Positions 19,921 through 27,732 of a stretch of 64,000 nt of DNA are shown piece after piece. Location: contig JAJVID010000137.1 in the NCBI GenBank assembly GCA_022072205.1, positions 12,331 through 76,330 of the forward strand. The letters run 5' to 3'. Source of the DNA: Acidobacteriota bacterium. GTDB lineage: Bacteria; Acidobacteriota; Blastocatellia; RBC074. Made by a program: the position numbers and the translations under genes. Each line of letters starts with the position of its first letter. Position 1 is the stretch's first letter. Under the pieces are notes generated by a model. It worked only from the letters and a program-made list of their open reading frames with translations, made no database searches and was not told where the DNA came from.

Positions 19921-22974
<3,054 letters not shown>

Positions 22975-23033
22975 TTCTATTACCTCCAGTGTCGCAAGCG
23001 AATGGCGCTTGATCCCAGCAAATCAGTTATAAA

Positions 23034-24842
23034 TCAGTGAACAGCGCAATGCAGGCACGGATCGAAGCTGCGGATCGTCCGCAGGATGTCAATGCCCATG
23101 AACTCTTCCGGCTTCGCGCTCTCTTCGAGCAGCGGAGTATTCATTACCGCGCTTTCGCAGGGGCCAGGAACACCGAACGGATCGCGCGGCGAAGCCGTCC
23201 AGGTTGACGCCGACAGAATTTGATAATCGGCGACGCTGCCGTATTCGATGGCGACGTGGTGAGTCATCGCGCCTCGAACTCCTTCCCAGAAACCGACGCC
23301 GGCGGCCTCGACGGGCGAGCGAAAAGGTTTGGACATCTTCTTCTCGCCTTTGTGCAGGTACTCGAACGCCTTCAGCATAAAAGTGAACGCCATCAGGCTG
23401 CTGTAGGCGATCTGATAAGCTCGCGCCCGATTTCTTTCCAGAGCGTTCGGTTTTTCGGGAATCCGCCAGCGCAACCGCTGCGCCGGCAATTCCAGCTTGG
23501 GCAATTCCATCTCCAACCCATTCCCCGTCGCGTGGATGAATTCGCTCTTCAGCTTGCCGGCCAGAGCCGAAACCCACATTCGCGCCAACGGCCCGGTCTC
23601 CATCGGCTCGCAATCCCAGCGCGGCGATGTTCCCCACGAATACCTTTCTTTCCAGTTCCGCTCCGACGGGTCGGGAATCGTCTTTTTATTCCAGGGATGA
23701 AACGGCGAGAGCGGCGAACCGTGCGGGTCGCTTTTCAGGCGGCTGCCCTCCCACTGTTTGTAAAACGAATGCGGGATGAACTCTTCGATCCCGATGTTGA
23801 GTTCGGTCAGCCGCGTCGTGCGCAATTCGCCGTTGACCACCGCGCCCGGCGTCGAAAGCCGCCGCTCGCCCCAACTGTTGCAATTCTGGTAAGAGCCATC
23901 GTAAGACTCAGCGTCGTCCCACATTCCCATGCTGAGCAGATTCGCAGGCAGTTCGCCGACTTTGCGGTAGAGGGGGTTGGCGTCGTAAAAGAACTCGACC
24001 AGATCGTCCCAGATCAGCGCGACTTTCTTCGAATATTCGACCAGCAAATGGATGCGGCCCAGCACGCGATTGAACGTTTCGCGCTCCGGCACAATTCCGA
24101 TTCCGCCTGGAAACATTGTGGACGGGTGCGGGTACTTGCCGAAGATAGCGGTGGCGATTTCGCGCGCCGCTCGCGTCACGTGCATCGCTTCCAGATAAAG
24201 ATCGCCGGCCATCGGGTTCATCGCAGCCATGATCTGAGCGATGGAGCCGAAGCCGTGCGCGCCAGCGTTCGGCGCCGACGCGACCAGCGCCTTCTCCCAC
24301 AGCGACGGAGCCGTCTTCCTGATAGTCACTTCGGAGTAATCAGGCCCGGCATGCAAAAACAGATGTTGCGGGTGATCGAAAAGGCTTTCGGCGCTCGCGC
24401 CCAGATTTCGCGCAATGATCGCCAGCGGAGGCGGCGCCACGTTGTAGGCCATCTCCAACGCCAGCGCGGAAGCGATCGTGTTCGCGCCGCTGCAAAGTCC
24501 GCAAACGCGGCTCGCAATCTGAACCGTGTCCGACGGCTCGCGGTCTTTCAGGATCAATTCATATCCGCGAAAGAGCGCGGCGCCCGTGCGCGCATCGAGC
24601 GCCTTGCGCTGCTCGAAATCAATCACGGTATGAAAGGCGAGCGCCCCGGAAACGCGAGTGACGGGGTCAATGTCGAAACTGCGAAGATATGAGCGTTCCG
24701 CCAATCCCGCGATTACGCGCTGCACGTCTGGTTCGGCCACTCCGACGCCGCCGCGCATGGCGAACGGGTACGACTGGCCATCGCCTCGCAGTGTGGCCTG
24801 CCCGCTCGCGTCAAATTCTATGGGGAGGTTCTTGAAATACAT
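23034..24842 (-). CDS. Divergent [NiFe]-hydrogenase large-subunit homologue, Cys-complete copy (HL-B)
   Basis: 602 aa. PVTRVSGA (in place of RIEGH), RVCGLCSGAN (CxxC kept, His replaced by Asn), GKYPHPSTMFPGGIG, and a C-terminus ending RSFDPCLHCAVH-stop with no extension. Confidence 0.8.
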   Translation of the reverse strand: MYFKNLPIEFDASGQATLRGDGQSYPFAMRGGVGVAEPDVQRVIAGLAERSYLRSFDIDPVTRVSGALAFHTVIDFEQRKALDARTGAALFRGYELILKDREPSDTVQIASRVCGLCSGANTIASALALEMAYNVAPPPLAIIARNLGASAESLFDHPQHLFLHAGPDYSEVTIRKTAPSLWEKALVASAPNAGAHGFGSIAQIMAAMNPMAGDLYLEAMHVTRAAREIATAIFGKYPHPSTMFPGGIGIVPERETFNRVLGRIHLLVEYSKKVALIWDDLVEFFYDANPLYRKVGELPANLLSMGMWDDAESYDGSYQNCNSWGERRLSTPGAVVNGELRTTRLTELNIGIEEFIPHSFYKQWEGSRLKSDPHGSPLSPFHPWNKKTIPDPSERNWKERYSWGTSPRWDCEPMETGPLARMWVSALAGKLKSEFIHATGNGLEMELPKLELPAQRLRWRIPEKPNALERNRARAYQIAYSSLMAFTFMLKAFEYLHKGEKKMSKPFRSPVEAAGVGFWEGVRGAMTHHVAIEYGSVADYQILSASTWTASPRDPFGVPGPCESAVMNTPLLEESAKPEEFMGIDILRTIRSFDPCLHCAVH

Positions 24843-24854
24843 TCACTGTCCTGG

Positions 24855-24914
24855 GAGCGCACGCTTCCAGCGCGCAACTCTGTGAGCGCACGCATCCAGC
24901 GTGCGCTCACAGAG
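24855..24914 (-). other. Intercistronic RNA structure: perfect 15-bp stem/7-nt loop hairpin plus a second copy of its 3' arm
   Basis: The hairpin has arms 24878..24892 and 24900..24914. On the mRNA, CUGGAUGCGUGCGCUCACAG is followed by the near-repeat CUGGAAGCGUGCGCUCCCAG, so the 5' arm GAGCGCACGC could pair with either copy. Confidence 0.7.
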
Positions 24915-24918
24915 ATCA

Positions 24919-26733
24919 TCAAGGATCGAAGCTGCGCGCCACGCGCAAAAGATCAACTCCGATGAAATCTTCCGCCCGCGCGCATTCTTCCAGCAGCGGA
25001 GTGTTCATCATCGCCGCTTCGTATATTCCCGGAAGACCGATGGCGTCGCGCGGCGATCCCATCCACTCGGACGGCGTGATGACCTGATAATTGCCGATCA
25101 CGCGATTTTTGATCGCCAGATGATGCGTCGTCATTCCGCGCCCCGATTCCCAGAATCCCACGCTGATCTTCCTGTCCGGATGTAAAAACCTGACGGACAT
25201 CGTCACCTCGCCCTGGCGAATGCAATCGAACGCTTTCAACAAATCGGCGTAGGCGACCATCACCGCGTAAGCCACCTGATAAGCCCTGGCCCGATTGCGT
25301 TCCAGCGCGTTCGGCCTTTCGGGGATTGACCACTGCAACGTAGTCGCGGGCCGTTGTCCCTTCGGCAAAAAAATTTCCAACCCTCTTTGCGACGACCTGC
25401 GCGATGACTTGATGAACTCGCAATTCTGCGCGCCGCCCGCTGCGTTGATCCACAAACGAGCCAGCGGCCCTGTCTCCATCGCTTCACGATCCCAGCGCGG
25501 CGCAGTGTTCCACGAATATCGTTCTTTCCAGTCGCGCGGCGTTGGAAAAGGAGCGGTTTCTTTGTTCCAGGGATGCCAGGGTGAAACCGGCCCGCTCAAC
25601 GGATCGGCTGGAACCTGTCCGCCTTCCCATTGCCCGTAATATGAATGATCAACAAATTCTTCGATGCCGATGTTGATGTCGGAGAGCCGGTCGGTTCGTA
25701 TCTCGCCGTTGATGATCACGCCCGGCGCCGACATCCGGCGCATCCCCCACTCGTTGCAGTTGGCGTAACTGGCGTCGTAACCTTCAGGATCGTCCCACAG
25801 CCCGACGCTGATCAGATTGCCCGGCAATTCACCCACGCGGCGATAACGAGGCTCGGCGTCGTAAAAGAAATCAACCAGATCGTCCCAGATGACCGCCAGC
25901 TTTTTGGAGTAATCCAGCAGCGCGTTGACGCGGCCCAGAACCTGATTGAATACCTCGCGGTTGGCTTCAATCCCGATCCCGCCAGGGACGATCGTCGCCG
26001 GATGCGGATGTTTGCCGAACATCAGCGTCGCCATCTCGCGGCCCAGCCGCGCCATCTGCAAAGCTTCAAGGTAAAGATGCCCGCTGATCGGGTTCATCCC
26101 GCGCATGATGTCGGCGACGGTTTCAAGCCCGTGCGCGTTGACGCCTGCGGCTGGCGTCTTCTGCGCCTTGCCCCAGAACGAGAGATTGGTGCGGCTGACT
26201 GCGCCTTCCGAATAATCAGGCCCCGCGAGCAGGAACAGATGATTGACGCATTCGCTGATCACTTCGCCGCAGGAACCCAGATTTCTTGCCAGCACAGCCA
26301 GCGGCGGCGGCGTCACGCCGGCGGCCATCTCCAGGGCCATCGCCGAAGCGATTGCGTGCGCGCCGCTCGAAGAACCGCAAACGCGGCTCGAAATGTGAAT
26401 CGCGTCCGACGGTTCATGGCCGTTCAGGGTCATCTCGCAGGCGCCCGATTGTCCGGCGAATTGTCCGCATTCGACGTGCGCGTCGAGCGCCCGCCGTTGA
26501 TCGAAATCAATCACTGTGCGCAGCGCGAAACGTCCACCGGTTCGCGTCACCGGCCCAATCTCGAAAGGCCTGACGTTTGGGTTGCTGGAAAGCTTTTCCA
26601 GCGTGCGCTCGCGGTTGAGCGCGCGTTGAATGCGGGGGTCGGGTGTGTAGTCGAAAGGGTCGCTGGCCTCTTCATCGCGCAAATGGGCGCGGCCATAAAC
26701 GTCGAATTTTATCGGAAGATTCTTGAAGACCAT
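24919..26733 (-). CDS. Degenerate [NiFe]-hydrogenase large-subunit homologue (HL-A); ends in TGA TGA exactly at the C-terminal Cys/Sec ligand position
   Basis: 604 aa, clearly paralogous to HL-B. L1 box reads [10 protein letters not shown] (second Cys lost, His kept). RIEGH position reads RTGGR. The C-terminus is ...RSFDP followed by TGA TGA. Confidence 0.75.
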
Positions 26734-26790
26734 TCAGGCCCCTACCGCTACCGCAGGCAGGCAAAAATCTGCGGCGGATTCAGTCGGCGA

Positions 26791-26827
26791 TATTTCATAT
26801 TTCACATGCGCTATTTCATATGAAATA
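26791..26827. promoter_or_regulatory. AT-rich repeat/palindrome in the gap between the small and large subunit genes
   Basis: TATTTCATA at 26791..26799, and a perfect 16-bp palindrome TATTTCATATGAAATA at 26812..26827, inside a 135-bp gap in otherwise GC-rich DNA. Confidence 0.4.
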
Positions 26828-26868
26828 TGATCACGCCTCGGAATTGTTGCCTGCGCGCTTATTGACGA

Positions 26869-27732
26869 TCAAAACGCCGGGTCCGGACGAGCCAGAGCCA
26901 GATAACTATCCGCGAAGTCGCGTTCGGTGCAGCCGATGCAGCTTCCGCCGACGCGGGCGCATCCGCCGAAGTTTCTCAACCACCCGGTCACGGGAACCGG
27001 GCACTTGACGGTCGGGCGGTTCGACAGATCGAACCCGACCGCAGGCGGATATTCAACGCGTGGTGGCAACGGATACGTTTCGTGGTTGTAAAGCCAGCGA
27101 GGACGGCGTTCCTCATCCAAATCAAGGGGCACCAATTGAGCCAGATGGAGGAAGACGTATATGAGCGTCTCAATAAAACCTTCGCCAGTTGGAGCGCATC
27201 CCGGCACATTGACTACAGGCAATCCGCTGGAACTGAAACCGCCGCGACTTCTGAAATCGCGGCCCAGATAATCTTCCAGCCCTTTCGCGCCTGTCGGATT
27301 GCCGTCCGCCGCGGGAATGCCTCCCCAGCTTGCGCAACTTCCAATCGCTATCACAGCCTCAGCCTGCGGAGCCAGCCGGTTCACCCAATCGGCGACAGTG
27401 ACCGGACGGCCATCAGCGGAGGTTCCCAGCCTGGAGAAACTCCCTTGTCCAGCCCGCGATTCATCAGCGATGGCGCCTTCGAGCACGAGCACAAAAGGCG
27501 AGAGCCTTCCATCCGCAGCCTGCTCCAGATTCGCCAGGAAAGCGTCGCCGCTCTCCGTCGCCAGATCAGGATGAACGAGGATGACGCGCGGCACGTCGGG
27601 CACATTGCCCAAAATCAGGTCTTCGATGCCGGGTTCGGACGAACCCAACATCGCCATCGTGCAGCCGTCACAGCCTGCGCCGCTCAGCCAGATCAGATAC
27701 ACCGCTTCGAGCGAGGACACTTCGCTCTGCAT
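26869..27732 (-). CDS. [NiFe]-hydrogenase small-subunit homologue, no Tat leader, 8 Cys only
   Basis: 287 aa. [23 protein letters not shown] and VPGCAP give the proximal-cluster pattern. A C-terminal C-x13-C-x6-C-x2-C (…[11 protein letters not shown]) is present. There is no RRxF leader and no H-x2-C / C-x5-C distal-cluster pattern. aagaggag RBS. Confidence 0.8.

Follow-up and report, generated by a model that had tools for sequence, protein, structure and literature searches.

An ordinary stop codon beside a REP-like repeat doublet in a hydrogenase-like gene module of a Blastocatellia genome

In [NiFeSe] hydrogenases the selenocysteine (Sec) encoded by UGA occupies the first position after DP, in the motif DPUxxCxxH, and the bacterial SECIS element is a hairpin located just 3' of its UGA. 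The malE-malF stabiliser is a REP hairpin within an operon, and REPs close to a stop codon reportedly stall ribosomes, as attributed to Liang, Rudd and Deutscher. A summary for E. coli describes REP hairpins near stop codons as stalling ribosomes and lowering the protein yield of the upstream gene (bioRxiv 10.1101/2024.07.17.603846). For dispersed palindromes in general, the REP and BIME elements and the REPINs of E. coli and Pseudomonas serve as the comparison system (Bertels and Rainey, 2011; PMC3116915). The locus considered here touches on all of these, as the gene for a hydrogenase-like large subunit (HL-A) stops after DP at the first of three in-frame TGA codons, with a perfect hairpin next to them. 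An earlier note on this DNA offered two readings, i.e., a decayed tail whose Cys codons became stops, or an unusual recoding or coupling signal between HL-A and the following gene, HL-B. It is very probable that neither applies, that HL-A truly ends at its first TGA without Sec, and that the spacer consists of two tandem copies of a REP-like repeat (CCTGGGAGCGCACGC-loop-GCGTGCGCTCCCAGG), the third TGA being a private change in one of them. HL-A terminates at DP in all orthologues, the hairpin is a member of a repeat family, and it is absent from this spacer in the closest relative.

The genome is a metagenome-derived draft (221 contigs, 89% complete). Within the window, i.e., the whole stretch of 64,000 nucleotides that was analysed, the minus strand carries in order the genes for a small subunit, HL-A, HL-B and a histidine kinase (Table 1). 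HL-A belongs with the group-1h-like [NiFe]-hydrogenase large subunits, as a paralogue that has no C-terminal CxxCxxH. Only the first of the four Ni-Fe Cys ligands is kept; the second N-terminal Cys is also lost, CGSS standing in place of CGxC. HL-B has all four (RVCGLCSGAN ... DPCLHCAVH) and no C-terminal extension; its protein ends with ...RSFDPCLHCAVH and its gene with GAT CCG TGC CTG CAT TGC GCT GTT CAC TGA, so that the stretch TGC CTG CAT TGC GCT is read from the DNA as the earlier note had it. The best solved relative of both paralogues is the group 1h large subunit HofG/HhyL (PDB 5AA5), with E 9.5e-113 for HL-A and E 2e-148 for HL-B, and both alignments are nearly full length, extending to ...RSFDP. 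HL-A thus shows the overall similarity to 5AA5 but not the four Cys residues of a catalytic group 1h large subunit. The small subunit, compared with 5AA5, keeps the proximal-cluster Cys residues and the C-terminal C...C...CxxC set and is without the stretch bearing the Cys residues of the other cluster.

Table 1. Features of the HL-A/HL-B locus; positions are those of the window.
Feature	Position	Strand	Basis or remark
[NiFe]-hydrogenase small-subunit homologue	26869-27732	-	
HL-A coding sequence, 604 aa, stop TGA included	24919-26733	-	orthologue ends, dN/dS
First in-frame TGA, genuine HL-A stop	24919-24921	-	orthologues end at same residue
Second in-frame TGA, tandem stop, 1 nt before hairpin in spacer	24916-24918	-	
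Third in-frame TGA, within 5' arm of REP copy 1	24907-24909	-	private G>T relative to family consensus
REP-like repeat copy 1, full palindrome, 16-bp perfect arms (24899-24914 and 24878-24893), 5-nt loop	24878-24914	.	matches CTGGGAGCGCACGC-loop-GCGTGCGCTCCCAG copies in genome
REP-like repeat copy 2, complete 3' arm, shortened 5' arm	24851-24875	.	doublet architecture on contigs C11, C38, C122 and C214
AGGA, Shine-Dalgarno-like, 6 nt before HL-B ATG, overlapping the end of REP copy 2	24849-24852	-	read from sequence; function inferred
HL-B coding sequence, 602 aa	23034-24842	-	
PAS/GAF hybrid histidine kinase	19921-22974	-	

Whole-genome searches of relatives and of a collection of species genomes gave more than 20 loci with the module, all from uncultured Blastocatellia or Acidobacteriota. 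In 24 of 24 orthologous loci HL-A ends at ...FDP followed by a stop (in one case FAP), and this holds down to 65% identity. The stop codon is TGA in 12 loci, TAA in 11 and TAG in one, and a Cys codon in none. The distance from the stop to the next gene varies from 1 to 288 nt and the sequence in between is unrelated. Five orthologues have a spacer of 7 nt or less and no hairpin, namely the closest relative (85% amino acid identity), where the junction reads GAT CCT TAA AATCGGA ATG, and four others with 1-5 nt. Comparison of this HL-A with its orthologues gives dN/dS values of 0.12-0.23, which shows HL-A to be a functional gene under purifying selection. As the truncation is common to all orthologues and selection is purifying, the loss of the CxxCxxH tail is old and maintained. 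This sets the true C-terminus of HL-A at ...SFDP, which matters for the role of a Cys-ligand-free hydrogenase-like module beside a histidine kinase.

More than 20 Blastocatellia genomes have conserved the wider module, which comprises the small subunit, HL-A, HL-B and the hybrid histidine kinase (19921-27732; loci L029-L053). Both large-subunit paralogues terminate with ...RSFDP-stop in most of these genomes and have an N-terminal R[VI]SGQGSGAN, leaving no Ni-Fe Cys ligand. All four HL-B Cys residues are kept only in this genome and at loci L029 and L045, and at L031 and L032 HL-A stands alone before the kinase. Full-text literature searches gave no description of group-1h-like large subunits without Cys ligands beside a histidine kinase. 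The spacers after HL-A and HL-B at L034-L052 form strong hairpins with arms made of tandem 7-nt words (for example GGAAACT, GACAACT, CTGAGTG and CGGATTG) that differ between genomes. A different, 60-nt perfect palindrome follows directly on the HL-A stop in genome G002 (L012/L031). On either side of it stands a copy of a 12-13-nt piece from the gene end, stop included (TTYGATCCTTAAA), which looks like a target-site duplication left by a MITE-type insertion at the same position.

After ...RSFDP the HL-A frame reads TGA TGA TCT CTG TGA GCG CAC, the last codon being that for His. The three TGAs are present as first noticed, and so are the 29 further open codons past the HL-A stop, closed by a TGA that lies within the 5' end of HL-B. 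TGA is the stop codon of 60% of the ORFs of at least 150 aa in this genome, an adjacent second stop occurs in 309 of 8791 such ORFs (3.5%), and genome-wide 17 other long ORFs have a TGA followed by at least two TGAs within the next four codons. The TGA triplet is therefore no more than is expected by chance. The hairpin does exceed chance, being a member of a repeat family. The third TGA lies where the family consensus CTGGGAGC has become CTGTGAGC, with the opposite arm changed from CTCCCAG to CTCACAG (C>A). The resulting variant, GCGTGCGCTCACAG, has a single site in the genome, the HL-A/HL-B spacer. Apart from this change CTG TGA GCG CAC GC is identical to the repeat-arm consensus CTG GGA GCG CAC GC (13 of 14 positions). 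As the third TGA and the GCG and CAC that follow it belong to the repeat arm, the likeness to DPUxxCxxH or UxxUxH is a coincidence. The proposal that the second and third TGA are relics of two Cys codons must be given up, as the third TGA, GCG and CAC lie inside a REP arm (consensus CTG GGA GCG CAC).

The spacer between HL-A and HL-B is 76 nt long. The hairpin is real and perfect, but the gap between the first UGA and the stem is 4 nt (1 nt for the second UGA), and not the 6 nt first described. Its 16 perfect pairs and 5-nt loop UGGAU are equivalent to the 15 pairs with loop CUGGAUG given originally. The 111-nt region folds with -57.9 kcal/mol (z = -4.5 relative to shuffled sequences), and the stem-loop by itself with about -36 kcal/mol. 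A second copy of the 3' arm is indeed found (24865-24851, 15 nt, 93% complementary to the 5' arm); it belongs to REP copy 2, which repeats copy 1 in direct orientation with 88% identity and a spacing of 29 nt. The suggested alternative pairing is a property of the tandem doublet and is seen in other doublets as well. A scan of 24600-25100 gave no terminator-like or promoter sites and the stem is not followed by a U tract, the next sequence being UUGCGCGC, which rules out an intrinsic (Rho-independent) terminator. By eye, only TGA is found on both sides of the doublet, too short to count as a target-site duplication. A 10-nt stretch in the last HL-A codons (AGCTGCGCGC, 24930-24939) shows 90% complementarity to the stretch that links the copies (24870-24879); in the minimum free energy (MFE) fold the outer helix formed by AGCTGCGCGC and the linker encloses the stop codons and the first hairpin, which may be due to chance.

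The repeat has the consensus CCTGGGAGCGCACGC-(5-7 nt)-GCGTGCGCTCCCAGG, obtained from aligned copies. Its core GAGCGCACGC occurs 78 times in the genome compared to 27 expected, and arm matches with at most two mismatches number 227 compared to 80 for a reversed-pattern control. The genome contains 12 full hairpins of the family, and doublets like that of the spacer, 86-89% identical to it over 52-57 nt, lie between unrelated flanks on the four contigs named in Table 1. As judged from a crude ORF map, 52 of 135 core clusters fall in non-coding DNA, which makes up roughly 11% of the genome, an enrichment of about five-fold; multi-copy clusters are nearly all intergenic and often abut ORF ends, and tandem, convergent and divergent gaps hold repeats in background proportions. 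Among 185,579 species genomes the exact full palindromes were found in 22 stretches, all in Blastocatellia, Pyrinomonadaceae or Acidobacteriota MAGs. Eight of these 22 belong to the closest relative, which has none in its HL-A/HL-B spacer. The family is, like REP and BIME elements, a dispersed imperfect palindrome with extragenic preference, lineage specificity and presence or absence at orthologous sites. Among described repeat families none was found to have this sequence; the repeat represents a new sequence family within a known type of element, here in an ordinary intergenic position. Judging solely by its distribution the family is probably mobile. A cognate RAYT was not found for the spacer repeat among the genes examined in the genome, where Y1_Tnp genes lie on contigs C51, C35 and C42, and the one on C51 has no flanking inverted repeats of 12 nt or more. 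As no RAYT gene could be tied to the repeat, the family is called REP-like. It also departs from a REPIN-RAYT system in that the doublet is direct and not inverted.

Further observations concern the surroundings of the repeats. The Y1 (RAYT-like) transposase gene at C35:45044-45388 (L084) is flanked by a separate palindrome, CCCAAGCTCCGTAGGAGCGACAT, that is unrelated to the spacer repeat. Many copies of GCGTGCGCTCCCAGG in the sense orientation are followed, 5-25 nt after their end, by a Shine-Dalgarno sequence and ATG (for example G000 C42:12536, C53:5013, C214:2645 and C5:14502), and genome-wide the start of a long ORF lies within 45 nt of 49 of 119 arm matches. In some cases, as at HL-B, the end of the repeat (CCCAGGA/AGG) is itself the Shine-Dalgarno sequence.

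The use of Sec by this organism is real. The genome encodes selA (473 bits), the SelB winged-helix domain (71 bits), selD (362 bits, with its own in-frame TGA at the Cys/Sec position) and, on contig C129, tRNA-SeC(tca). The earlier note had named a missing Sec machinery as what would refute recoding; selA, selB, selD and tRNA-Sec are all present, recoding is not refuted in this way, and the matter must therefore be decided at the locus itself. The selD gene (G000 C16:65973-66902, L005) itself encodes a selenoprotein; its sequence is ...MVDCAG-UGA-AAKLSP, and two hairpins lie immediately 3' of the UGA. That at least one UGA of HL-A encodes Sec, the hairpin serving as SECIS and the extended protein bearing a DPU...H nickel-binding tail, could be argued from this machinery, from the first UGA at the [NiFeSe] Sec position with a hairpin after it, and from the loose fit of that hairpin to a generic bacterial SECIS (a stem-loop soon after the UGA with a G in the loop). 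An Rfam scan of 24700-25050 with E <= 10 returned noise and no SECIS match, but the genuine selD UGA region was equally unmatched, so that the scan speaks neither for nor against a SECIS. The decisive test is the comparison of orthologues, in which neither hairpin, UGA nor continuing frame is conserved. TAA or TAG is found in 12 of the 24 loci, as often as TGA, and a hairpin follows the stop in about 10 of 12 TAA/TAG cases as compared to about 8 of 12 TGA cases. The orthologues share no stem-loop at a set distance 3' of the UGA: five have no room for one, the closest relative's spacer being only 7 nt, and the others have non-homologous hairpins. UGAs at 0, +3 and +12 cannot all suit a fixed SelB-SECIS distance, and the third lies in the stem. 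The product of read-through, DP-U-U-S-L-U-A-H, would be wrongly spaced and devoid of Cys, and the extension would run into the HL-B start region. The N-terminal RxCGxCxxxH of a [NiFeSe] large subunit is altered in HL-A, and a four-ligand site could not form. Recoding of HL-A can therefore be given practically no credence, and a dedicated coupling signal is refuted along with it, the downstream sequence being unconserved and the hairpin being a dispersed repeat that is missing from the same site in the closest relative. The other suggestion, a decayed tail, was right only so far as HL-A stops after DP and is not recoded; the truncation is seen in every orthologue and is not a local decay. A recent loss in place, in which both TGC Cys codons turned into TGA and an old coding tail survives as a remnant downstream, has in its favour that TGA differs from TGC by one base and that TGA-x-x-TGA-x-CAC resembles the TGC-x-x-TGC-x-x-CAC of HL-B. 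Set against this, a hand alignment to HL-B fits at about 10 of 18 bases only, and the supposed remnant has the 13 of 14 identity to a genome-wide repeat arm described above. As every orthologue ends at DP, down to 65% identity, the loss of the tail long predates this genome, and a recent decay is very improbable.

Two further alternatives were weighed. A palindromic doublet could have been mis-assembled into the spacer of a metagenome-derived genome, as repeats are prone to mis-joins and the draft is in 221 contigs and 89% complete. Both flanks are however collinear with relatives, and the doublet carries private, mutually compensating changes that are unique in the genome and that a collapse or chimera would not create, which makes an assembly artefact hardly believable. 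It is also conceivable that the hairpin is under selection and sets the HL-A:HL-B ratio, through the stability of an mRNA segment or a slowed ribosome; the anatomy would be the same as for a neutral repeat insertion. The compensatory double change keeps the stem perfect and could mean function rather than neutrality, although palindrome symmetry can persist by templated repair without selection. Of the HL-A to HL-B spacers measured in relatives, 13 of 18 reach a length of 40 nt or more and 12 have strong hairpins of unrelated sequence, and stalling at stop-proximal REPs is reported for E. coli (summarised in bioRxiv 10.1101/2024.07.17.603846). The repeats that form hairpins in the relatives are unrelated, and many consist of arrays of 7-nt words. 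On the other hand the five relatives with spacers of 1-7 nt, including the closest, have no hairpin. The spacers between HL-B and the kinase are at least as structured (MFE of -20 or lower in 16 of 18), so that hairpins seem to be a general intergenic feature of these genomes, and the idea that they are specific to the HL-A stop was rejected. Selection on this hairpin is judged unlikely. The five relatives without a hairpin and the similar hairpins in neighbouring spacers argue for a largely neutral insertion. It is tempting to speculate that unrelated palindromic repeats have been recruited repeatedly into the HL-A/HL-B spacer across Blastocatellia lineages, where RNA structure would uncouple translation and set the ratio of the paralogues by slowing ribosomes at the stop and protecting the upstream mRNA, but such a general scheme is quite improbable.

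In the preferred account, that of an ordinary stop beside a REP-like doublet, the doublet fills a spacer that is only 7 nt long in the closest relative. Copy 1 forms the perfect 16-bp hairpin and copy 2 supplies the apparent extra 3' arm. The second TGA is a tandem stop bordering the inserted doublet, and the third is a private point change in one repeat arm, for which the other arm compensates. The stem-loop is very stable. Once transcribed, it probably acts like other REP hairpins within operons. By analogy with these it could block 3' exonucleases and so protect the upstream mRNA segment, and it might slow the ribosome at the HL-A stop, since it begins 1-4 nt after the stops. The doublet may also break the tight translational coupling of HL-A and HL-B found in relatives, in which case HL-B would start from the AGGA at the repeat end, 6 nt before its ATG.

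The locus calls for caution, as a UGA at the hydrogenase Sec position, a perfect hairpin and a full Sec machinery in the genome still amount to an ordinary stop beside a selfish repeat; comparison of orthologues settled the question of the UGA quickly. One more REP-like family is added to the repeat-rich Blastocatellia genomes. The wider module with a small subunit, one or two large-subunit paralogues and a histidine kinase is a more interesting object than the hairpin. Compared with group 1h hydrogenases (HofG/HhyL), in which maturation genes adjoin, the module adjoins a hybrid histidine kinase instead, and HL-A differs from the group 1h large subunit (5AA5) in missing three of the four Ni-Fe Cys ligands. 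With the SECIS of E. coli fdhF and the DPUxxCxxH of [NiFeSe] hydrogenases the locus shares a UGA right after DP, a hairpin downstream and Sec machinery in the genome. It is unlike them in that the UGA of HL-A is TAA or TAG in half of the orthologues, that downstream frame and hairpin are unconserved, that there are three UGAs with one inside the stem, and that HL-A lacks an N-terminal Cys ligand. The closest parallel to the malE-malF type of intra-operon REP is the stable stem-loop between co-transcribed genes, 1-4 nt after the upstream stop; any effect on HL-A and HL-B is drawn by analogy from malE-malF and stop-proximal REPs, the case here being known from sequence. As with REP, BIME and REPIN elements (PMC3116915), the repeat is a GC-rich imperfect palindrome of about 33 nt with tens of dispersed copies and intergenic enrichment, occurs as singlets and close doublets, and is lineage-specific and present or absent at orthologous sites, whereas the spacer doublet is a direct tandem pair and the pair of a REPIN is inverted.
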